Below are positions 39,212-57,338 of a stretch of 64,000 nt of DNA, piece after piece (position 1 is the first letter of the stretch; each line of letters begins with the position of its first letter). The DNA comes from a plasmid, in the sequence record OW849071.1; one strand, 5' to 3'. Both the position numbers and the translations under genes were made by a program. The notes under the pieces were generated by a model. The model was not told the origin of the DNA. It did not search any database and worked only from the letters and a program-made list of their open reading frames with translations.

Positions 39212-39931
39212 CTATTGATTTAACAAAAAATTAACACCATCGTTTAATATCGAAACCACATTCGATATAAACTTTCCATAACTTAGAGTATAGATCGATG
39301 ACATTATGATATAGTCACGATTATCAAAGCTCAGTTCCTTTTTTATTTTACTAACTGTATTTTTTGAGGTTTGCACCCCAACACCTGTAATCTTCGAAAT
39401 AGATGCATGAGAAAACCCAACCGCATACAGATTAAAGATAGCCCAGTCAGACTTTGCTGAACGCTGAATTCTTTCGATATATCTTTGCATCTTTATAGAA
39501 AAGTCATTGTATTCCATTGAAGGATGAGGCATCGGTTCATCTTCATTTATAAAAACCCATTTACTGTATGTATCTTCATTAATCGAGAACGTTTCAATAA
39601 AAACAGTCCAAAGTGAACCTGCCAACCAAATATTTTTAACAAGTACAGCAGAACCTTCTGAAAACGATTTCAGTTCTGACTGCATCAGTTCCAGTTTGAT
39701 CTCCAGGGAGAGATCCAGAAACCAGCTTCCAGGTGCTCTGGGTGTATCAAATGCTCCAGTTCCACCAGATGTTAAGAAAATTTTGTCAAAGGTTGGGCTG
39801 GTGTGAATTACTTCGCCCCGGGAATCACGAATAAAAGCAGGGCAAGATGAAATATTAAGCATCTCGCGCATAGAATGAATGGAATCTGTTTGACTGCGCA
39901 CAGCAATATGACTACGATCCTTCGCACACAT
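39212..39931 (-). CDS. traJ: Transfer activator TraJ
   Basis: 239-aa AT-rich ORF at the traJ position between traM and traY; C-terminal HTH-like segment (ISKITGVGVQTSKNTVSKIKKEL). Confidence 0.7.
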   Translation of the reverse strand: MCAKDRSHIAVRSQTDSIHSMREMLNISSCPAFIRDSRGEVIHTSPTFDKIFLTSGGTGAFDTPRAPGSWFLDLSLEIKLELMQSELKSFSEGSAVLVKNIWLAGSLWTVFIETFSINEDTYSKWVFINEDEPMPHPSMEYNDFSIKMQRYIERIQRSAKSDWAIFNLYAVGFSHASISKITGVGVQTSKNTVSKIKKELSFDNRDYIIMSSIYTLSYGKFISNVVSILNDGVNFLLNQ

Positions 39932-39934
39932 AGG

Positions 39935-40020
39935 CGCCTCCTGGAAAGGACACTATGGATAGTTGACGTTCGGGGGGACTAGCCCCGGACGTCAACGCTT
40001 CAACAAATTTTATTACAACC
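39935..40020 (+). ncRNA. finP: FinP antisense RNA (antisense to traJ leader)
   Basis: Opposite strand of the traJ 5' UTR; strong stem-loop GACGTTCGGGG-GGACTAG-CCCCGGACGTC at 39965..39993, typical of FinP/traJ SLII. Confidence 0.5.
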
Positions 40021-40130: not shown

Positions 40131-40514
40131 TTACTCTTCTTCCTGCTCGGGGAAGAAGTGAGAAATAACATCTTTTGCATCTTCTCGAATGTTACTCACC
40201 ATGCTGCGGAACTCGAATCGTTCATCACCTGTAACATGAGGGCTTAGAGAGCCAATAGCCAAAAGTTTGGATACGGTAAACTGAGTCTTCATGACATTCT
40301 CAAGCAAAATCTTATTAAACTCAGTTTGGTTAAACCCTGAATCTTTTCTTTCCATTTGAGCCTCATAAACCCTAAGCCCTAATTCAAGGAGCATCGAAGC
40401 GACACTTGAAAAACTGACATCCTTTTCCTTTGCCCCTTCAGCCCTTCGCTTTTCCACTATTGCATTAATTTTCTCTGCAACTTCATCACTAGCATAAGCT
40501 TGTACCCTGGCCAT
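40131..40514 (-). CDS. traM: Relaxosome/signalling protein TraM
   Basis: MARVQAYASDEVAEKINAIVEKRR.EGA.EKDVSFS..ASMLLELGLRV.EAQMERK matches F TraM. Confidence 0.9.
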   Translation of the reverse strand: MARVQAYASDEVAEKINAIVEKRRAEGAKEKDVSFSSVASMLLELGLRVYEAQMERKDSGFNQTEFNKILLENVMKTQFTVSKLLAIGSLSPHVTGDERFEFRSMVSNIREDAKDVISHFFPEQEEE

Positions 40515-40547
40515 ATCGGTTCCTTTATTAAAAACAGCATCAAGCAA

Positions 40548-40930
40548 GTTATTATGGCGAGAAGATAACGCGAGTTTACCTTCTTTACAACTCTAAACTT
40601 AAGTCTAGAGTCTAAGAAAGTTGCATTACGAGTCACATGGCGACTTAAGTCTAGAGTTAAGTCGCTTTAAATATATGATTATAAAAGAGTGAGTCATAAA
40701 CGAGTCGCTATAGACTTACCGACGACTTACTACTGACTCGCCGGCAACTCACATATATATAAAGAAAAATAACATAATGTAATATAACTACAGTTAAGCC
40801 ACTGAAGCTAAAGTGAAATCTGCAAAATTTTAATTTTGCGTAGTGTGTGGTCATTTTGTGGTGAGGAGTGCATATATGTTGAGTCTCGGTCTTGGATGGG
40901 TTAAGGTTATTCCGGGATTTGGCACGGAGG
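40548..40930. promoter_or_regulatory. oriT: Origin of transfer oriT (nic region ~40845..40865 on + strand, TraM/TraY/IHF binding region, divergent promoters)
   Basis: Between traM and orf169. Contains GCGTAGTGTGTGGTCATTTTGTGGTGAGG, resembling the R100/F nic motif GCGTGGGGTGTGGTGCTTT; inverted repeats (AAGTCTAGAGT...ACTCTAGACTT). Confidence 0.75.
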
Positions 40931-40937
40931 GGAATTC

Positions 40938-41423
40938 ATGAAGGGAGCAGCGTTTGGTATCATCCTGTCTTTAATACCATTGTCATCAATGGCAGCAGAC
41001 TGCTTTGATATGGCTGGCAGGGATTACAAAATTGATCCGGATCTCCTGCGTGCTATATCATGGCAAGAATCACGATTTAAAATTGATGCGATTGGTCGTA
41101 ATCCTGTTACGGGTTATGGATCAGGCTTGATGCAAATTGACTCGCAGCATTTCAACGAACTGTCGCGATATGGAATAAAACCGGATCATCTTCTTAGCGA
41201 TGCTTGTCTTAACATCTACACCGGAGCCTATTATCTGGCTCAGGCGTTTAAAAAGTGGGGCGTTTCGTGGGATGCAGTCGGGGCATACAATGCAGGCTTC
41301 AAAAAGACCCCGCGCCAGGCAGCAAGACGTTACGAGTATGCGAAGAAGATCCATTACTACTACACGGCTATCAAAGCAAGCAAACGAACTTCTTCTAAAG
41401 ATCAGAAAATCGCCATGAACTAA
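40938..41423 (+). CDS. Lytic transglycosylase (F orf169 / R1 gene 19, P19)
   Basis: Signal peptide, ..[27 protein letters not shown]...[21 protein letters not shown], almost identical to F ORF169; GGAGG RBS. Confidence 0.92.
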
Positions 41424-41455: not shown

Positions 41456-41788
41456 TTAAAAATCTACGGCATCTATACCTGGATAATAATCGGCATCACT
41501 ATCAAAATGAAAAAGCAGATACCCGCCCTCCCGGTGCATTAGTATGAGATTTTTGCGTAAAAATTTTGACACCCCACCTCTTTTTAGCGCCAGAAGATGG
41601 CGTTTGAAATCATACATCCTTATAACACAACCATAAGGTGTATCATGTATCCACTCTAAGTAACTATCGCAAGTTAGATAATTGGTTGTTGATGAAAGCA
41701 CCTGAAGAACTCTGATATCACCTTCTTCCATATGTGAAATACTGATACAGACAGCTTTAAATTCAAACATAAGTATTCCCACCATCAA
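41456..41788 (-). CDS. hypothetical leading-region protein
   Basis: 110-aa ORF between orf169 and orf273. Confidence 0.4.
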   Translation of the reverse strand: MMVGILMFEFKAVCISISHMEEGDIRVLQVLSSTTNYLTCDSYLEWIHDTPYGCVIRMYDFKRHLLALKRGGVSKFLRKNLILMHREGGYLLFHFDSDADYYPGIDAVDF

Positions 41789-41817: not shown

Positions 41818-42654
41818 TTAGCCTTTAAGAGTGCGGAATTTCTCCGCAATTAACCACAATGCCTTATTGAGTTTAACATCACCATCGATTGCTTTTACTG
41901 GCCGGGTTGTTGTTCTTTTCCCTTTTTCAGTTCGGCCAGGCAAACCGCCTTTAATCAGATTTTCCTGGACCCTTTGATATGTAGTCCAGATGTCATCTTT
42001 TTTATCTTCATAACGGCGCGGATGAATTATCTGTTCAATACTGACCGGAGATTTATTTTCATCTTCATATCGGTAGGTTAATGCAGCTTGTCCAAACAGA
42101 CGCTGTTCTTCCTTGGTTAAGGTAATAGACTTCATGACATCAACGCCTTCAGTTATTTTATCGAAAATTCCCAAAACTTCGTAAGCACCTTCGATAACCC
42201 TTCCCACAATATCACCTTTATGAGGTACACGAATCTCACCAAACGACGTACCGCACACAAGGCCATTTGTGCATACAAAACGGAACATACCCGGGATCAT
42301 TTGATAACTGGACGATCCATCATGCGAGTTAAGAAGAATGATTTCGGGTACTTCTGTTCCTTTATTGGCCCCTTCACGGCGAAGTCTTACCATATGCTTA
42401 GTATGCCCCCGTTTATCCTCATCCCTTACTCGTGACTGACAGGCAAAAAATGGCTGGAAACCTTCTTCACGTAATTTATCCAGCAGTGTAATGGTTGGAA
42501 TATAGGTATAGCGATCACTACGTGAATTATGCTTTTCTTCTGAAAACACAGAAGGTACAACCTTGACCAATTCATCGTTAGTCAGTGGGCGTTCCTGACG
42601 AATGGAATGAGTAAGTCCAAATCGGGATGCTAAACGCATATTATTCTCCTTCAC
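41818..42654 (-). CDS. Leading-region protein ORF273-like (DUF932 family)
   Basis: 278 aa; position next to orf169 and size match F ORF273. Confidence 0.65.
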   Translation of the reverse strand: MKENNMRLASRFGLTHSIRQERPLTNDELVKVVPSVFSEEKHNSRSDRYTYIPTITLLDKLREEGFQPFFACQSRVRDEDKRGHTKHMVRLRREGANKGTEVPEIILLNSHDGSSSYQMIPGMFRFVCTNGLVCGTSFGEIRVPHKGDIVGRVIEGAYEVLGIFDKITEGVDVMKSITLTKEEQRLFGQAALTYRYEDENKSPVSIEQIIHPRRYEDKKDDIWTTYQRVQENLIKGGLPGRTEKGKRTTTRPVKAIDGDVKLNKALWLIAEKFRTLKG

Positions 42655-42673
42655 CTGTTTAATTTTTTAACCA

Positions 42674-43335
42674 TCACCCGTTGAGTTGCCGGGGCCGCGG
42701 TTTTGACTTTGTGCGGGGACCTGCTGAACCTGCCCCTGGATATAACCTTCACCCGTTTGAGAGCCGTTCGCCGCAAGGGCGTAAACGAGCACGGCCCGGT
42801 GCAGATGTCCGGGGGTGAGCGGGAAATTTTTTTCGGTCTAATGAAGCGCAGCGGAATGGCCGGGAAAAATTTATTGCGAAAGGCTCTGCCGTCCCCTGGA
42901 CAGCAAGACGGGTTGTGCTTGTCTCAGCCCCGGCGAATGGACTCAAACGGGTGATACGGGTACCAGGGGAAAGGAGCAGGCACCCGCCGCAACGACGAAG
43001 AGCGCGGGCGCGAAACGGCGTTGCCCCGCAGAGTGCCGGCAGTCCTTCGCCGGCACGGTGAAAGCGGCGCGGCCGGAACGGCCGCAGCAAGCGCTGCCGT
43101 TGACTTTGACCTCAGACATCAGACACTAGCCGTCAGGCCCGAAAGCGCGTAGCGGGTTCGGCGGAGCCCGGCGGGTGCGAAGCAGCTGCCCTGGCGGAGT
43201 GTGGCTCGACGACCGGACAGCGCAGCTGGCCGGGAGCCGAAGGTGTCCAGTGTGGGTATGCTTTTAAAGCCTTTAAGGTTTAAAAAGAGGCATCACAGCA
43301 GGGAGAAGGAGAGGAAGCAGGCAAACAGCAGGCAG
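42674..43335. repeat. Frpo-like GC-rich palindromic element, copy 1 (putative ssDNA promoter / ssi)
   Basis: ~0.66-kb element repeated at 46062..46665 (~85-90% identity with internal indels); long-range inverted arms (ATCACCCGTTGAGTTGCCGGGGCC ... GCCCCGGCGAATGGACTCAAACGGGTGA); purine-rich 3' tail. Confidence 0.5.
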
Positions 43336-43466
43336 CAAACAGGGAAGACGCGGAAAGGAAATGCGGGCGGCGCGTCAGCGCGGCCCGGTTTTCCCGGCGC
43401 CGCAGGCGCGCGGTCTTTCGAGGCGCGGCCAGACGGGGACAGGTGCCCCGCCGGCTTAACGTGTCA

Positions 43467-44032
43467 TCAGACGGTTATTCTGAGAATGGCGGTCGCTACC
43501 TGGGTATACGTGAATGTTCCCCGTGGCAACGGCTCCCAGACGTCCGCCAGGGACTCCAGCGCCTTTTGCTGACGCGGCCCGTCCAGACATATGCCCGTCA
43601 GAATCCCGCCAGGTTCAAGCAGAGTTAATGCCCGCCGGATATGCCGGATATCATCACCGCGATTAAACGGCGGATTCATGATAATTCGTGTATACCGGCG
43701 CTCCGGATGATATTCGAGAAAATCTCCGCACCAGATCCGGACCTCCGGGAAATGAGCCTGCAGGTGACGGGCTAACCCGGCGTGCAGCTCCACGGCGTCA
43801 CACTTCGCCCGGGGGACTGCATCCCTGATCGCCTGCAGTATGGCGCCCGTTCCGGCACTGGGTTCCAGAATGCGATCGGTTTCCCGGACATCAGCCAGCT
43901 CAACTAACCGGCGACATTCCGGGGAGGGGGTGACAAAAAGTTGCGAGCTACCCCGAATTTCAGCGACAGGGGCGCGCCCTTCCAGTTTGACCCGCATCGC
44001 CTGAATACGGTGTTTAAGGTCATGATGCATGA
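43467..44032 (-). CDS. Orphan DNA methyltransferase (N6-adenine/N4-cytosine class, NPPF motif)
   Basis: SAM motif I (ILEPSAGTGAI) and motif IV (IIMNPPF); GGGAG RBS before Met at 44032; no adjacent restriction endonuclease gene. Confidence 0.75.
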
Positions 44033-44077
44033 ATGTACTCCCTGACCTCCCCGGCAAGATGCCGGGGAGCCTTCCTG

Positions 44078-45433
44078 CTATTTTTTCGGAATTTCAACGG
44101 TTTTCATGTCTGTGATATACACATTCACGAGCGTACAACCGTGCGTCATGCACCGGCGGAAGCGGTAGGCGCCGTGTGTTTCGGTTTCTGCAGCACCCCG
44201 CACGCCTTTATAATCAGCGGGTAATTTCGCCCACTCGGCTTTTGTCATTTCCCGGAACCCTTCCCCCGGATAATTGACGATCGGTGGGCGCTTCGCCGCT
44301 TTCTTCGCGTCGCTGGCTTCCTCCGCTGTCGGGGCTTTGTAGTCCGTGATACGGTCGGGCGTGAGTTTCATCGTGCCGCTGTAGCCCAGAAAGCGATAAC
44401 CGGGCGTTTCGACTGAACTCACCTCCCCCTTACTCCGGTTAACCCGGAGAATGGTTAACCATTCTCCCCGGCTCAGTACCTGCCCGCCTGGTTCAAATTC
44501 CTGTGTTCGGGTGACAACGCCACCGTTTTCATTGAGCATCGCGCGTTCGTAGGCCAGGCGGTTCTGGTAATGATTAACCCAGCGCTGTTGGTGGTTAATC
44601 GTGCGCTCATGACAGCGGATCGCAATATCACGCGCCTGTTCAAAAGTAATGATCTCCTCCGACAGGGCAGAATGGAGAGACATCGAGCCCTCATACTGGC
44701 TTTTCTCTGCCGGGCGGGGGTATTTGTCGAGCGTGAAGCAGGCATGAATATGATCATAATTACTGACCAGTAACGCCATTTTCAGATCGAGCGTCTGCGC
44801 ACGCCACATCGTCATATACTTTTCAGACCGGGCAATGTGCTTTTGGGACTTGCGTAATTCCGCCTCGATTTTTTTGATACGGCGGTAACGCACATCCGGA
44901 CGCTCCTTGTATTTTGCGTGCCGCAGAGAGGCCTGCGCGCGCTGTTCCCAGTATTCCGCACGCTCGAACAGCATCACGGCACGTTTCATGCCGCTCTCAA
45001 TTTTCTGCGCATGCCGGCGCGCGCGGCGCTCGCTGTGGTGGCCTACCAGGATCGGCTGTCCCAGCGGGACAGCCGATGCCAGCGAATCAACATGCGCAAG
45101 CGCCTGCTCCGATTCAACCGCCCGCCGGTCACTGTAGTCACTGAACCGCCCGGCGCGCTGCTCCTGGCGATCAAACAGGGTGCTGTCCTCGTCCTCGATA
45201 TCACCGGCGAGCGAAAGCAGGACATCCTCCCGCCCCGGCGTCCAGGCTGGCGCCACAAAGAGTTTCTGTTTGGGCGCCCAGCGAAAGCCTGCTTTGTTGA
45301 TCAGGGAATACGTTTCTTCATCGAGCCGTAATGATGCGTAAAGTCGCAATTTATTATCATCGGGTGAATAGGTTGCCCGGTAAGTCTGGCTGACGGTATT
45401 TTCCGTCATGATCTGTGCGGTAGTCGGTGTCAT
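44078..45433 (-). CDS. Large leading-region protein (DUF3560-like)
   Basis: 451-aa hydrophilic, Arg/Glu-rich protein immediately upstream of the methyltransferase in the same orientation. Confidence 0.5.
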   Translation of the reverse strand: MTPTTAQIMTENTVSQTYRATYSPDDNKLRLYASLRLDEETYSLINKAGFRWAPKQKLFVAPAWTPGREDVLLSLAGDIEDEDSTLFDRQEQRAGRFSDYSDRRAVESEQALAHVDSLASAVPLGQPILVGHHSERRARRHAQKIESGMKRAVMLFERAEYWEQRAQASLRHAKYKERPDVRYRRIKKIEAELRKSQKHIARSEKYMTMWRAQTLDLKMALLVSNYDHIHACFTLDKYPRPAEKSQYEGSMSLHSALSEEIITFEQARDIAIRCHERTINHQQRWVNHYQNRLAYERAMLNENGGVVTRTQEFEPGGQVLSRGEWLTILRVNRSKGEVSSVETPGYRFLGYSGTMKLTPDRITDYKAPTAEEASDAKKAAKRPPIVNYPGEGFREMTKAEWAKLPADYKGVRGAAETETHGAYRFRRCMTHGCTLVNVYITDMKTVEIPKK

Positions 45434-45484
45434 TGTGTTTTCTCCTTCCTGCAGTTGCCGCCCCTCGCGGGGCGGCTCACCTCA

Positions 45485-45715
45485 TCAGTTAAATGCGCGT
45501 TTCAGTTCCAGCGTGCGGAGTACCTGCCCGAGGGCGGTATTTTTCATCGCGGGGATGTGGACACCGCGCCCTTTGCGGTGACTTCTGGCGATATGACGCC
45601 CGAAAGCTCTGAGAGCGGGATCAATCTCCGGTGCGGTGATATCTGCGCGCAGAATGCGCGAATGACGACGGGGCTTTACAGCGCCTGCGGAAGGTGAAAA
45701 AATAGAAACGATCAT
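45485..45715 (-). CDS. hypothetical small basic protein
   Basis: 76 aa with strong AAGGAG RBS. Confidence 0.45.
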   Translation of the reverse strand: MIVSIFSPSAGAVKPRRHSRILRADITAPEIDPALRAFGRHIARSHRKGRGVHIPAMKNTALGQVLRTLELKRAFN

Positions 45716-45806
45716 AAAGTTGACTCCTTATGGTAGTTAACGAAGCCGGAAAAACCGTTCGTGCGATTTTTACGGCGTGGGAGAAGCAGGGTTTACCCTG
45801 CTTTTT

Positions 45807-46034
45807 TCATACCTGCGGTTTGCTTCCCGCCTCTTCTTCCTCCTTCTGAACCTGATCGGTAATGTCTTCCGGTGCGCCCAGAAACCAGCCTTTGACGGGT
45901 TCACAGCGTTCAATAAACGCTTTTATCGCCCGTTTTCCGGTCGTGGCCTGCACCCGGGTAAACATCGGCAGATTGCCGCTGGCATTGCTTCCCAGAAATG
46001 CGATCCGATACGTTCGCAATGAAGGATCCTGCAT
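45807..46034 (-). CDS. hypothetical small acidic protein
   Basis: 75-aa ORF immediately downstream (minus sense) of Frpo-like copy 2. Confidence 0.35.
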   Translation of the reverse strand: MQDPSLRTYRIAFLGSNASGNLPMFTRVQATTGKRAIKAFIERCEPVKGWFLGAPEDITDQVQKEEEEAGSKPQV

Positions 46035-46061
46035 TTTTCTTTTTCCCGATTTTTAAAGAAC

Positions 46062-46665
46062 ATCACCCGTTGAGTTGCCGGGGCCGCGGTTTTGACTTTG
46101 TGCGGGGACCTGCTGAACCTGCCCCCTGGTATTAACTTCACCCGTTTGAGAGCCGTTCGCCGCAAGGGCGTAAACGAGCACGGGCGACGGCAGCTGTCCA
46201 GGGCGCGGTTTACCGCGTGCCATTTACCCTGGACGGATGATGGCGACTGTGCTTGTCTCAGCCCCGGCGAATGGACTCAAACGGGTGATACGGCGCCAGG
46301 GGGAAGGAGCAGGCACCCGCCGCAACGACGAAGAGCGCGGGCGCGAAACGGCGTTGCCCTGCAGAGTGCCGGCAGCTTTATCGCCGGCACGGTGAAAGCG
46401 GCGCGGCCGGAACGGTCGCAGCAAGCGCTGCCGTTGACCTTGACTTCAGACATCAGACACTAGCCGCCAGGCCCGAAACCGCGTAGCGGGTTCGGCGGAG
46501 TTTACCGCGTCTTTTCGCGGTTAGCGGAGTGTGGCTCGACGACTGGACAGCGCAGCTGGCCGGGAGCCGAAGGTGTCCAGTGCGGGTGTGCTTTTAAAGC
46601 CTTTAAGGGTTAAAAAGAGACATCACAGCAGGAAGAAGAAGAGAAAGCAGACAGACAGCAGGGAG
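46062..46665. repeat. Frpo-like GC-rich palindromic element, copy 2
   Basis: Direct repeat of 42674..43335 including the same inverted arms and purine-rich tail. Confidence 0.5.
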
Positions 46666-46760
46666 CAAGCCGGAAACGTAAAGATGCAGGCTGGAGAGAA
46701 TATGTTTTTCATGCCGCCGGAAAGAAGCCATGATAAACCGGCGGCATACCAGACGGGGCG

Positions 46761-47382: not shown

Positions 47383-47603
47383 AAGAAGAAAAGGTACGCA
47401 GATATTACGCTCTTAATCCTTAACTGGCGACCTGTTGAGGTGAGGCCAGTACGCAGCGCCGCAGGTGTGGCGAACCGCCTCACTGGCAGGCGAAGCCTGC
47501 CAGGATTTTCGCGCGGCCGCACCGATCTGCGAAGCCGGGTAAGCTCCTCACAGATCGTGCCGTCTCTGACCTTAAACGGGGCGTCGGGCGCCCCGATATA
47601 GTA

Positions 47604-48083
47604 TCAGTCCAGAGCCGCGTAAATAGCAGCGCATTCGTCATGAGAGTCAATGAAATTCCACAGCTGCGATTCCCGCAGCATCAGGTGGCGTGTCAGGGCA
47701 GCATCACCGCGTTCATGGTGCAGCCAGATACGGCGGTTGATCGCCAGCGCCGTAATGATAACTCCGGCCGCATCCGCGCTGACGGACCGATCAAACCAGT
47801 TATCCGGGTTAGTCAGATGGAAACGGTCACCGTCAGGCATCATGTAGCCGCCGCCCTCCGGAATACGGATGAAATGCCAGAAGCCTCCGCAGTAATCGGT
47901 GATGTGTTTCTCAGCGAGCGCATAGACCTGCATCTCTCCGGCCAGAAAATCGTTACCAAACAGATCCGGCAGGAACGAGAGACGGTCGGACTCCTCTACA
48001 TTCAGCATGGTTTGACGGGCATGATACATAGCAACCTCCACAGGTTCATAAGATTGCGGCACCGGGTTGTGCCGTGCCGACAC
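47604..48083 (-). CDS. Putative anti-restriction protein (ArdB/KlcA-like)
   Basis: 159 aa; size, leading-region location and ..DYCGGFWHF.. segment are reminiscent of ArdB/KlcA/YfjX; needs profile confirmation. Confidence 0.45.
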   Translation of the reverse strand: MSARHNPVPQSYEPVEVAMYHARQTMLNVEESDRLSFLPDLFGNDFLAGEMQVYALAEKHITDYCGGFWHFIRIPEGGGYMMPDGDRFHLTNPDNWFDRSVSADAAGVIITALAINRRIWLHHERGDAALTRHLMLRESQLWNFIDSHDECAAIYAALD

Positions 48084-48548
48084 GACAGCCCGGCGGAAAG
48101 CGGAAGATGCAAGGGCGACACCGGAGGCCGCAGCGCAGATAAAGCACGAAGCTGGTCTGGACGGTTTTAGAGCGAACCTGAGCGAGAAAACGACGGGAAG
48201 AACGGCGAGCTTCCTAAAAAAACTGCGACCGGGCGAGGATGGCGGCGCCAGCGAACCCTTGCATCTGCAGCGGCCGGGCTAAAGTGAAGGCACGGCACTA
48301 CCCGAAGCGATGCAGGAGATACAACATGAGGTCCCCTGTCGCGGTTTACGAGCGCAGGGAGAAAAGCAGAAGCTGGCATCGCGACGCGATGGCTGCGTAT
48401 AAAGGCCGCAGACCGGAGGGAGGGGGCCGGACAAAGCGGAGCCGGCGGCAAAGACAAGCCGGCGACGTCCTTATCCGGTGTTGATGGCATGGCGCCAGTT
48501 TATCAGCTGCCCGTCACCAGGCGGCCCGGGAGACCTCTCGTTCTGAGC

Positions 48549-48962: not shown

Positions 48963-50887
48963 AGGGATACCCGTTACCGGGTACCCCCCGCACAGATCCC
49001 GGCGTGCGCTATTCACGCACCGGGCTCCTGCCTTGGGTGTCTGGCGGTGAACCGCTCCACAGGCCATGGATGCAGAACCCGAACCTTCGGCAGCCATACG
49101 GCTGCCAGTCTGTTTGCTTTCGTCCATGTCGTATCATCCTGCTGGCTCCTGCGCCTCAGCGCCCGTCGCCAGAGGTCTGTTACGTATATCCTGAACTTCC
49201 GCATCATGGGATAGTTGCCCGGGACTGAGTGGTAGTTCAGGTATCCCTGAACCACTCTCCTGAGCCATTTTCCCTGTTCGGGGATTGAGTAATGCCAGCG
49301 CTTTCGTAGTCCGTCCTTGATCGCTTTCAGTGTCGCCGTCATCCTGCCCCGGCGTGTCTTTCGTATCAGCATGAACCTGCCACTACGATCTTTCCCACTG
49401 ATATGCGTGAACCCGAGGAAGTTGAACGTTTCTGGTTTACCTTTTCCCCTGCTGGCGCGGTTTTCGGCTGCGAAGCGGCCGAACTCCGTCAGTCGGGTTT
49501 TCTTCGGATGTACCGTGAGTCCGAACTCCTTCAGTCTGCGCTGCATGGCTATACGAAAGCATTGAGCGTCGATTCGCTTGTCGAACCCGATGACTATGTC
49601 ATCTGCGTATCTGACCATGACCACATTGCCTGTGGCATGGCGGCGTCGCCACTGATGCGCCCACAGATCGAAGACATAGTGGAGGTAGATGTTTGCCAGC
49701 AGCGGCGAGATAACCGCACCCTGTGGGGTGCCTTCCTCCGATGCCCGCCATTCTCCTTCCTCCGATGCCCGCCATTCTCCTTCCTCTGAGGTCCCGGCTG
49801 TGAGCCACTTTCGTATGAGCCTGATTACCCTCTGGTCGCCGATTCTGTGTTCTATGAACCTGATTAGCCATTCATGGCTTACCTTGTCGAAGAACTGACT
49901 GATATCGGCATCCAGTACCCAGTTTACATTGGTCCGAACCAGCCCTGTGGCCAGTGCGTCCAGCGCATTGTGCTGGCTTCGCCCGGGTCTGAACCCGTAT
50001 GAAAACCCCATAAAGTCATTTTCGTAGACTGCATTCAGGATCTTAACCAGCGCATACTGGACGATTTTGTCCTCCAGTGAGGCGATGCCGAGCGGGCGCT
50101 GTTTTCCATCCGCTTTCGGGATGTAGTGCCGCCTGCCGGGCTGAGCCCTGTAACTACCCTGATGAAGCCTCCGGTGCAGATCTGCTATGTTGACCTTCAG
50201 GTTTTCGGCGTAGTCCTTCCACCTGACACCATCAACTCCGGCAGCCGCTTTCCTGCTCAGGGAGAGGAATGCGTTCTCCAGTGCCTCTGCTGTCAGGAGG
50301 TGGAACAATGCGGTAAACCGTTCTTTCTTCCGCTGCTTCGCAGCTTCCCGCACGCGTGACAGCCTCTGTGACATACTTTCCCGGCTCTGCGTCCGGCGCA
50401 TGTGTGGCTGTTCCGCGTTTCCCTTGGCCCCGCTCCTTCGCTCCACTGACTCCGCTCCTTGCGGATTGTTCGCCAGATTCGCAGCTACTATGAGCGAGTC
50501 CGACTTCTCCTCTCCGTACATCACCGGCTTCGGCTCCTCGCCTTCCCGGTGCGGGCCATCTCCGGCACTGGCAGATGGTCAGAGGGGAGATCTCCCGGTT
50601 CCCGCGTAAAGATCGTATTGACATGCCAGGGTCTCAGACCCCGCCGGGTCCATATGGCACTCGCAGTAACGCACCCTATGATGTTGCCTTCCGTAAACAG
50701 TACAACGTCGGCACCCGGGAATTTAATATACATTTCGTGGCTCAATGGCTGGCCTGTCAACACCCCTGTCAACGCTTCGCCCCATACCTCACGGTATACA
50801 ACGCATGACTCGGGGACCCTGTGGATTGCTGGTCCTTCAATGGTCGGGGACTTTCACCCCTTGATCTTTACCGGTCTCCCGGCGCAC
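48963..50887 (-). mobile_element. Group II intron (ORF in domain IV; endonuclease-less RT, class C-like)
   Basis: 5' end GTGCGCC on minus strand. Domain V-like hairpin with AGC triad (GAGCCCGGTGCGTGAATAGCGCACGCCGGGATC) ~40 nt from 3' end. Domain VI hairpin GGGTACCCG-GTAA-CGGGTATCCC with bulged A; ends ..CTAC. Confidence 0.7.
49013..50401 (-). CDS. Group II intron reverse transcriptase/maturase
   Basis: RT motifs (..GTPQGAVISPLLANIYL.., YADD in MVRYADDIVIGF), maturase X domain; no C-terminal HNH/En domain; start uncertain (longest ORF from 50524). Confidence 0.85.
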   Translation of the reverse strand: MRRTQSRESMSQRLSRVREAAKQRKKERFTALFHLLTAEALENAFLSLSRKAAAGVDGVRWKDYAENLKVNIADLHRRLHQGSYRAQPGRRHYIPKADGKQRPLGIASLEDKIVQYALVKILNAVYENDFMGFSYGFRPGRSQHNALDALATGLVRTNVNWVLDADISQFFDKVSHEWLIRFIEHRIGDQRVIRLIRKWLTAGTSEEGEWRASEEGEWRASEEGTPQGAVISPLLANIYLHYVFDLWAHQWRRRHATGNVVMVRYADDIVIGFDKRIDAQCFRIAMQRRLKEFGLTVHPKKTRLTEFGRFAAENRASRGKGKPETFNFLGFTHISGKDRSGRFMLIRKTRRGRMTATLKAIKDGLRKRWHYSIPEQGKWLRRVVQGYLNYHSVPGNYPMMRKFRIYVTDLWRRALRRRSQQDDTTWTKANRLAAVWLPKVRVLHPWPVERFTARHPRQEPGA

Positions 50888-56426: not shown

Positions 56427-56935
56427 TCCTATGTCCCTTCATTGACGCTTTTCTATTTTCTCAGCGTATTTTCCGCAAACTTTATTCACCTATATGGATA
56501 CTTCGATTCCGAGTGGCGGCTGTCTTGTTCACAATTTCTATCACGAGGTGCTCCTCTGGCGCATATTTAACGATCTGGGGCAAGGGTCGAGAGAGCGGTT
56601 CTGATCAAAGCGAGCATCGATGGCATCAGCACAGCGCTGCAATGCACCCGGTTGTCGATACCATGGCATTTGCTGATACGGTCACATGGTATTTGCTATA
56701 TCTTCGATTCAGCGTCGGCCTTAAACCATAAAAAATGCCATTGATAATGCAGTCATATCATCAATGGCACTCACTAAATCAAATAAAACAATAGGCTAAA
56801 TAATAGCCTCACTCCCACTCTATTATCAACTGCCTATATATCATATTAATTTACTTAGATTAAATATCAAATAAAATATCAATGCCATGACTAATGCCAT
56901 ATCTAAAAAATATGAACACAGGGTACATCTCCTGC

Positions 56936-57338
56936 TTATCTCACGCAGCCTAGAAACAGCATTACGATCCGATAAGCTGGCTCATAGCAAGACAGTACCC
57001 TCGGGTCGGGGTCTACTTCGCCGTGTAGTAGGGCGTTTCGCATAGCGTAGATCGTTTCAATCAATCCCGACAATAGCTCTTCAGGGGAGCACTGAAACTC
57101 CATCGCCCCGACTTGCAGGCGATCGGCTCCACCACGCAGTAGGTCGCGCCTCGGGCGCGGGTTGCAGCCGTCATAGAGCTGCCGCAGCGTCGTTTGCTGG
57201 GCTTTAGAGAGGTTCGCAGTAAAGTCTGCATGGCCATAGATCGTGTTCGGCTCATAATGCACCTGAACGTGCTGGAATTTCACGTTTCCATTGCGAACTG
57301 AGGTGACGGTGATCTGGATGTTTCCGCCCGCGATCTTC
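56936..57338 (-). pseudogene. C-terminal fragment of an unknown gene truncated by IS1
   Basis: Open frame runs into the IS1 inverted repeat with no plausible native start; GC content differs from the adjacent DUF262 genes. Confidence 0.3.

Follow-up and report, generated by a model that had tools for sequence, protein, structure and literature searches.

The stretch of DNA considered here, 64,000 nucleotides of sequence record OW849071.1 (hereafter the window, meaning the stretch at its full length), belongs to a conjugative IncFII(K)/FIB(K) plasmid of Klebsiella, and its leading region contains a GC-rich direct repeat in two copies. An earlier reading made from the letters alone (the sequence-only reading) had proposed that both copies are Frpo-type promoters, which act on single-stranded DNA (ssDNA). 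The 8-kb stretch around the repeats shows 100% identity with many Klebsiella pneumoniae IncFII/IncFIB conjugative plasmids, and the gene layout was taken from the RefSeq annotation of an identical plasmid, NZ_CP034282 (Table 1). In this annotation, the minus-strand run of the leading region comprises genes for DUF5983, DUF932 (orf273), a methyltransferase, DUF3560, small open reading frames (ORFs), a HolE-like protein, and KlcA, and past the klcA block lie a group II intron and then umuDC. In the minus sense, copy 1 of the repeat stands before orf273, and copy 2 stands before the small ORFs, the DUF3560 gene, and the methyltransferase gene, an arrangement that had been read from the sequence and that matches the annotation.

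The nic-region homologue of the origin of transfer (oriT) aligns with the nic region of the F plasmid (79% over 58 nt; E 5e-10) and lies on the + strand, and in the F record (NC_002483) the template strand of the leading genes carries the nic sequence and is also the active strand of ssiD. Because of this shared orientation, the + strand is, judging from sequence, the transferred (T) strand, which would enter the recipient 5' to 3' toward higher coordinates and template the minus-strand genes; the direction of entry assumed in the sequence-only reading is thereby borne out. With the T-strand fixed by the nic homologue, the DNA at higher coordinates is therefore the leading region.

Table 1. 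Features of the window around the direct repeat, in order of position
Feature	Coordinates	Strand	Remarks
traJ homologue	39212-39931	-	RefSeq annotation; tra operon on the minus strand
FinP	39925-40002	+	left of the nic-region homologue
traM	40131-40547	-	RefSeq annotation
oriT nic-region homologue	40833-40868	+	sequence TTTTGCGTAGTGTGTGGTCATTTTGTGGTGAGGAG; between traM and the SLT gene
SLT transglycosylase gene	40938-41423		
DUF5983 gene	41456-41785	-	3' of copy 1 in the gene sense
DUF932/orf273	41818-42639	-	first gene downstream of copy 1
Copy 1 hairpin	42690-43012	+	class-1 (Frpo/ssi/ssp1) ssDNA-promoter homologue
Copy 1 proximal tail	43013-43112	+	small conserved hairpins TGCCGGC/GCCGGCA and GCGGCC/GGCCGC; TTGAC-containing linker
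Copy 1 tail core	43113-43243	+	multi-helix, ~130 nt; covariance model R1 135.8 bits, E 2e-25
Copy 1 distal tail	43244-43346	+	T-rich patch (GCTTTTAAAGCC...), then purine-rich low-complexity sequence to the repeat end
Methyltransferase gene	43467-44030	-	copy-2 gene block
DUF3560 gene	44078-45433	-	copy-2 gene block
Hypothetical ORF	45485-45715	-	copy-2 gene block
Hypothetical ORF	45807-46034	-	copy-2 gene block, nearest copy 2
Copy 2 hairpin	46067-46351	+	short-tip class-1 subtype
Copy 2 proximal tail	46352-46446	+	
Copy 2 tail core	46447-46573	+	covariance model R1 130.3 bits, E 3e-24
Copy 2 distal tail	46574-46676	+	T-rich, then purine-rich
Intergenic segment	47383-47603	+	unsupported as an ssDNA promoter
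klcA/ardB	47604-48029	-	KlcA antirestriction protein
Class-2 (ssp2-type) ssDNA-promoter homologue	48063-48304	+	242-nt hairpin, 34 nt upstream of klcA/ardB

The direct repeat and its two hairpins

The two copies (42672-43346 and 46061-46676) consist of blocks (families D1-D5) sharing 91-98% identity, and their pairwise alignment has a mean column identity of 88%, with one replacement of ~55 nt (42815-42913 in copy 1). GC content in the repeats is 0.56-0.70, as against about 0.41-0.45 in the adjoining orf273, and no third copy was found in the 64-kb window. The original description of two GC-rich copies of ~0.6 kb at ~85-90% identity is thus accurate. The long-range inverted arms ascribed to them are likewise real on the + strand, but they are confined to the first half of each repeat and do not form one large palindrome: the hairpin occupies only the first ~350 nt, and the remaining ~300 nt (43013-43346 and 46352-46676) constitutes a separate module outside the big hairpin, containing small local helices only (z about -2.4 to -2.9). 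The repeat formed by Frpo1 and Frpo2 in F also exceeds its hairpin (554 bp; 89% identity).

Folded as ssDNA, the + strand of copy 1 reaches a free energy of -99.8 kcal/mol (z -6.1), compared with -83.1 for its complement, and that of copy 2 reaches -101.4 kcal/mol (z -8.6), compared with -80.0; the hairpin energies quoted are from DNA folds, and the hairpin drawings used for comparison with F and ColIb-P9 were made with RNA parameters. No shuffled sequence folded as well as either hairpin. The stability of ssiD in F, an imperfect hairpin of ~330 nt (-93.9 kcal/mol; z -9.0), is similar to that of the window copies.

The fold is also seen in the comparison of homologues. A consensus of ten F-like elements contains 82 pairs, in which 96.2% of the cells are paired versus 38-45% with slid partners, with compensatory changes at nine pairs (zero to four in the slid controls) and a covariation score of 0.158 (at most 0.062 in the controls). 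Furthermore, the consensus energy is -99.45 on the T-strand versus -76.28 on the complement, G.T cells outnumber A.C cells by 71 to 8, and each of the ten elements is more stable on the T-strand, the window copies by 17 to 21 kcal/mol (DNA folding). This bias of the fold toward the T-strand is as predicted by selection on the folded transferred strand.

Related promoters and the segments near klcA

When single-stranded, Frpo of F adopts a stem-loop in which the host RNA polymerase is offered -35 and -10 boxes. In pESBL and F, ssDNA promoters of classes 1-3 have been documented by RNA sequencing after donor elimination and by 5' rapid amplification of cDNA ends (PMC12672017); class-2 promoters are treated in the same work and in PMC13478746, and transcripts from class-1 promoters also prime complementary-strand synthesis (bioRxiv 10.64898/2026.01.09.698686). 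For the present comparisons, reference and candidate promoter sequences were taken from Supplementary Table 2 of Samuel et al. (2024, Nature; PMC11541004), and BLAST was run against these and the F plasmid.

Copy 1 (42671-43027) aligned with ssiD (= Frpo) of F over positions 4-348 of 351, that is, 345 of the 351 nt (68%; E 2e-20), and with F Frpo2 over 396 nt (68.7%; E 8e-32), and copy 2 aligned with Frpo2 over 344 nt (68.6%; E 6e-27); the comparison with F Frpo is therefore positive for both copies. Frpo1 (ssiD) and Frpo2, class-1 promoters that are also called ssp1a and ssp1b (Couturier et al., 2023; PMC9849209), resemble the window copies along the whole hairpin, in being on the T-strand, and in their location in the leading region. 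Frpo1 (F 63656-64003) lies directly upstream of ygeA and a DUF932 gene by oriT, the same place as that of copy 1 here. The F elements have been proven by experiment, whereas the window copies are known here from sequence.

Among the published candidates, Frpo'1-3 are from Serratia marcescens (CP047692.1) and Frpo'5-6 from an insect gut metagenome (PMC11541004). Copy 1 shows 98.7% identity to Frpo'1 of the Serratia plasmid, with the 5' flank included and therefore with the same downstream gene, and copy 2 shows 82.5% identity to the insect gut Frpo'5. At the position equivalent to that of copy 2, the Serratia plasmid has a long-tip element, whereas copy 2 of the window is of the short-tip subtype, which is present in at least 2601 plasmid records, with one instance directly beside an ssb gene. 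Copy 2 itself is a mosaic, with flanks (46061-46376 compared) that are 92-96% identical to Serratia Frpo'2/3 and a centre of the short-tip type of the insect Frpo'5; central parts have evidently been exchanged between repeat units of different plasmids.

At the distal end of the hairpin, the proven F and ColIb-P9 elements have an AT-rich tip stem, an asymmetric 3'-arm bulge of 9-14 nt that reads TATATC, TACATC, TGCATC, or TGCATT, and, following the bulge, CCCCTGGAC. In copy 1, the AT-rich (UP-like) tip stem is present, 42824-42839 pairing with 42860-42875, and the bulge of the 3' arm (42873-42884) is 12 nt long and reads ATTGCGAAAGGC where F has GATGTGCATTTCAC. In copy 2, the AT-rich stem is swapped for a 5-bp GC mini-hairpin, CGCGG-TTTA-CCGCG (46204-46217), and CATTTACCCTGGAC is kept (46221-46234), identical to the matching stretch of F Frpo2. 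The ColIb-P9/IncI1 elements ssi1-3 (Frpo1-3 in AJ238399; Bates et al., 1999; class 1 of Wen et al., 2025) have the same architecture and role, with the distal motifs TGTCCGGGGG and CCCCTGGAC common to both systems and the AT-rich tip in common with copy 1; the basal two thirds of their hairpins gave no BLAST alignment to the window copies.

Several geometries for the -35 and -10 boxes were weighed against F and ColIb-P9. By eye, the hexamer candidates are TGGCCG-17-AAGGCT in the 3' arm of copy 1 (42857-42885), TTGAGA-17-CGTAAA in the 5' arm (42757-42785), and, in copy 2, CATTTA alone (46221-46226); the sequence does not fix any of these, and they are to be taken as candidates only. The Frpo construct of Samuel et al. 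was without the basal third of the 3' arm (PMC11541004), which favours a promoter in the distal part of the hairpin over a 5'-arm TTGAGA-17-CATACT reading. Alternatively, read-through from native upstream promoters could explain the result obtained with this construct.

Two more GC-rich segments had been suggested to be structured elements preceding the other minus-strand genes. One of these, 48084-48548, does contain a real hairpin (48063-48304), but of a different class, ssp2, and unrelated in sequence to the two repeats. The stretch 47603-48304 aligns with F 56480-57181 (ardB and the upstream ssp2 region; 68% identity; E 5e-60), to which the published candidate Frpo'4 is 81% identical, and in an alignment of five sequences (the window, F ssp2, and three published candidates) compensatory changes occur at 21 of the 49 pairs. 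Class-2 (ssp2) promoters precede ardB (yfgB)/klcA and ardA (Wen et al., 2025, PMC12672017; Fraikin et al., 2026, bioRxiv), and the window hairpin is homologous to the ssp2 region of F and has the same position relative to klcA/ardB. Both are long hairpins with a TTGCAT-N15-TAAGAT-like motif in the 3' arm; in the window this motif reads TTGCAT-N15-TAAAGT and is located at a mismatched bubble, the second hexamer being conserved as TAAAGT or TAAGAT. By these sequence criteria, the element is a class-2 (ssp2) ssDNA-promoter homologue. The suggestion is not supported for the other segment, 47383-47603, which forms small local hairpins only (z -3.45) and showed no BLAST similarity to the reference or candidate ssDNA promoters tested. 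Directly after the klcA stop codon, a terminator-like GC-rich hairpin on the minus strand (47576-47594; CGGGGCGCC-CGA-CGCCCCG, then TTTAAGG) is a plausible terminator dividing klcA from the HolE-like gene.

Two further observations concern the neighboring genes. The Rfam family AS-pc01 (RF02875, "antisense to pHK01_035") matches 45710-45806 on the + strand with 97.7 bits (gathering score, 79), in the gap that separates the pair of small minus-strand ORFs in the copy-2 operon, and an antisense RNA family is thus present on the + strand within an operon that is putatively expressed from an ssDNA promoter. The group II intron between the klcA block and umuDC (49013-50854, minus strand) comprises ltrA (49013-50524) and an RF02005 match (50629-50854), and the interior of ltrA contains a perfect 24-nt tandem duplication (49731-49778; CCTTCCTCCGATGCCCGCCATTCT twice).

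The tail of the repeat and its core

The ~300-nt remainder of each repeat, referred to here as the tail, can be divided into a proximal part, a core of ~130 nt, and a distal part. The published ssi sequences (328-351 nt) extend at their 3' end into the proximal part, whose helix 3 has compensatory changes at five of seven pairs (alignment A2). For the tail, an alignment of 22 sequences gives a multi-helix structure of 46 pairs, with 98.4% of the cells paired versus 23-42% in slid controls, compensatory changes at 15 pairs versus zero to three, and a covariation score of 0.243 versus at most 0.055. The variable helix of the core is replaced wholesale in copy 2 and its relatives; in copy 2, its place is taken by another hairpin, ACCGCG-TCTTTT-CGCGGT. 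A protein-coding tail was considered and rejected: no frame is open across the 22 homologues, the indels are not multiples of three, and the helix variation is compensatory. Short "hypothetical protein" coding sequences annotated in some records across the hairpin and tail (1392-2069 in locus L027 and 207025-207699 in CP024508) are probably spurious calls, since the region covaries and no frame is conserved in it.

The core is widely distributed. When one genome per species was searched for the motif, 21 loci were obtained, nearly all on enterobacterial plasmid contigs, and wherever the available sequence was long enough, a class-1-like hairpin was present with the core ~80-135 nt on its 3' side. 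The hairpins beside the core are of five subtypes, namely the ColIb, F, copy-1, copy-2, and Salmonella Frpo*5 types; in an IncI-gamma plasmid, for example, the same core, 79% identical to that of copy 1, comes after a hairpin of the ColIb type. Core homologues are present in 2993 of 5426 complete E. coli genomes (55%), with a median of three per genome, and 8211 of the 8297 places are on plasmids; none is annotated as RNA. Rfam contains no family matching the core at gathering thresholds, only chance-level matches being returned up to E = 10, and in the searchable literature the motif strings of the tail gave a single match, to an unrelated oligonucleotide. The entries of Samuel et al. are 400-nt sequences that end within the proximal tail, and the core is not described there (PMC11541004). 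What is established is that the core accompanies class-1 ssDNA promoters as an optional module, kept by compensatory changes beside five hairpin subtypes in IncF and IncI plasmids.

Within the window, covariance model R1 matches exactly twice, in copies 1 and 2, with no match beside the ssp2-like hairpin or in 47383-47603. Both window copies have the 130-nt core, whereas the tail in F is without it, and no R1 match was obtained in the 20-kb leading region of F (NC_002483 48000-68000). In the E. coli IncF plasmid pU13A_A (L027), on the other hand, the core is found at 125.8 bits between hok/mok and a Frpo1-like hairpin, and the laboratory model plasmid F is thus atypical in this respect.

With respect to the sequence after the core, the purine-rich tails mentioned in the sequence-only reading correspond to AGCAGG-like repeats of low complexity (43290-43346 and 46625-46676). 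At the same place, related loci have (CCACG)n (L012, L014, and L018), (CAGGAA)n (L005), (GCAGGA)n (L019), or four copies of CCTTGA (L023). Units of the enterobacterial type were also encountered on contigs labelled as Ferruginibacter (L006 and L021) and Dysgonomonas (L023 and L025) metagenome-assembled genomes and as Streptomyces morookaense (L016); these labels most likely reflect contamination or mis-binning and not the real host range.

Promoter, priming signal, or passive repeat

The best explanation, to which we assign a probability of roughly 80%, is that each repeat is a two-part unit of the leading region, consisting of a class-1 ssDNA-promoter hairpin and a structured tail, with a homologue of the ssp2 class upstream of klcA. 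Homology, strand, position, fold, and covariation are demonstrated here and support the Frpo-type reading originally proposed, while initiation specific to ssDNA, the timing of expression, and priming would follow by analogy with F, ColIb-P9, and pESBL, from which we also infer the promoter activity of these copies. In addition, the unit of hairpin and tail occurs in more than 5000 plasmid records, at up to seven places per record, and its orientation and position relative to the genes templated by the T-strand are constant in all loci examined. Each hairpin is oriented for expression and is followed, after ~50 nt, by a start codon that has a ribosome-binding site.

In the proposed mechanism, the + strand would enter the recipient as ssDNA, and ~300 nt would fold into a long imperfect hairpin that imitates duplex promoter DNA. 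Host sigma-70 RNA polymerase could then start inside the hairpin and run leftward along the + strand, so that, before a complementary strand exists, orf273 and the DUF5983 gene should be expressed from copy 1, and the pair of small ORFs together with the DUF3560 and methyltransferase genes from copy 2. Synthesis of the complementary strand would abolish the hairpin, and both promoters should then be silent in the duplex; the transcripts may also prime this synthesis. A third promoter, of the ssp2 class, would act upstream of klcA.

Several points weigh against this explanation. Folding of the + strand, a check suggested with the sequence-only reading, came out positive, with long hairpins of the promoter type in both copies, but a standard sigma-70 consensus scan returned no -35/-10 pair in either, and neither copy retains every feature of the proven F and ColIb-P9 elements. 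The bulge of copy 1 differs in sequence from the -10-like bulge of F and ColIb-P9, copy 2 is without the AT-rich tip stem and hence without a duplex segment able to house a -35 box, identity to F is only ~68%, and the copy-1 type has been supported in print solely by bioinformatics. As for the tail, the Frpo promoters of F work without the core, which is therefore not needed for Frpo activity, and the role of the tail is a guess. If the hairpins were mainly ssi signals or structural roadblocks for complementary-strand synthesis in the recipient, and not mRNA promoters, their great stability (about -100 kcal/mol) would be accounted for, and precedents are available: ssiD of F owes its original isolation to its activity as a priming signal, DNA synthesis can be primed in vitro by Frpo transcripts (PMC7690428), and in vivo, early rifampicin-sensitive conversion events occur near ssp1/Frpo loci and an ssp2 hairpin stalls complementary-strand synthesis (bioRxiv 10.64898/2026.01.09.698686). 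The priming and promoter roles are compatible, however, the same F elements being required for early gene expression, and the hairpins here are placed and oriented as promoters of the genes that follow; a role mainly in priming or blocking, and not as mRNA promoters, is improbable. It is still more improbable that the repeats are non-functional leftovers, whether recombination scars or a passive miniature repeat between cassettes, with the genes relying on ordinary promoters in double-stranded DNA. Such units do recombine, as the mosaic copy 2 implies and as the published gain or loss of a 9.7-kb leading-region block between repeats of this kind illustrates (PMC3817090), and the missing canonical hexamer pair would fit as well. 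Passive repeats would not, however, retain a strand-specific structure such as that evident from the G.T and A.C counts, and the hairpin is kept across subtypes by compensatory changes, in an unvarying orientation and position relative to the T-strand-templated genes.

For the core, a role can be suggested only tentatively. Since one operon templated by the T-strand ends on one side of it and the hairpin promoter of the next lies on the other, an insulator or roadblock may be guessed at; it is possible, at modest odds, that the core is an undescribed functional structured element which insulates during the ssDNA phase, stopping RNA polymerase or the complementary-strand replisome, on arrival from the upstream operon, from unfolding the hairpin and thus lengthening early expression. 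Somewhat doubtful is a function as an RNA element, that is, as the 3' end of the upstream operon mRNA (a terminator or stabiliser) or as a + sense small RNA of the established plasmid ending at the T-rich run. In line with such a function, the core can form nearly the same structure on both strands (alifold energies of -42.4 and -37.8, with G.T and A.C counts that do not discriminate), a T-rich run follows it on the + strand in many copies, and the + strand antisense family AS-pc01 is present in the same leading region. Yet the sigma-70 scan found no promoter for a + sense RNA, the T-rich run is absent in loci L003, L005, L016, and L022, no U-run follows the helices in the minus sense, and the core is without an Rfam family.

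The repeats are of an already known kind, copy 1 being nearly identical to a candidate listed in 2024 and the family being established in F and IncI1 plasmids; what is new is the division of the repeat into hairpin and tail and the evidence for the tail core as a very common, structurally constrained, and unexplained element. Promoters of the Frpo type allow anti-defence and establishment genes to be expressed before the plasmid is double-stranded, and, through this early expression, they are central to the establishment of resistance plasmids in Klebsiella and E. coli hosts. Confirmation in IncFII(K) adds little knowledge, the type having been catalogued, but gives exact coordinates and modules: judging from sequence, this leading region is organised by three promoters of two classes. 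Furthermore, two class-1 subtypes are represented, one with a long AT-rich tip and one with a short GC tip, each without one feature of the proven F and ColIb-P9 elements. Overall, the tail core, very common, constrained, and unannotated, is the one item able to open a new question.

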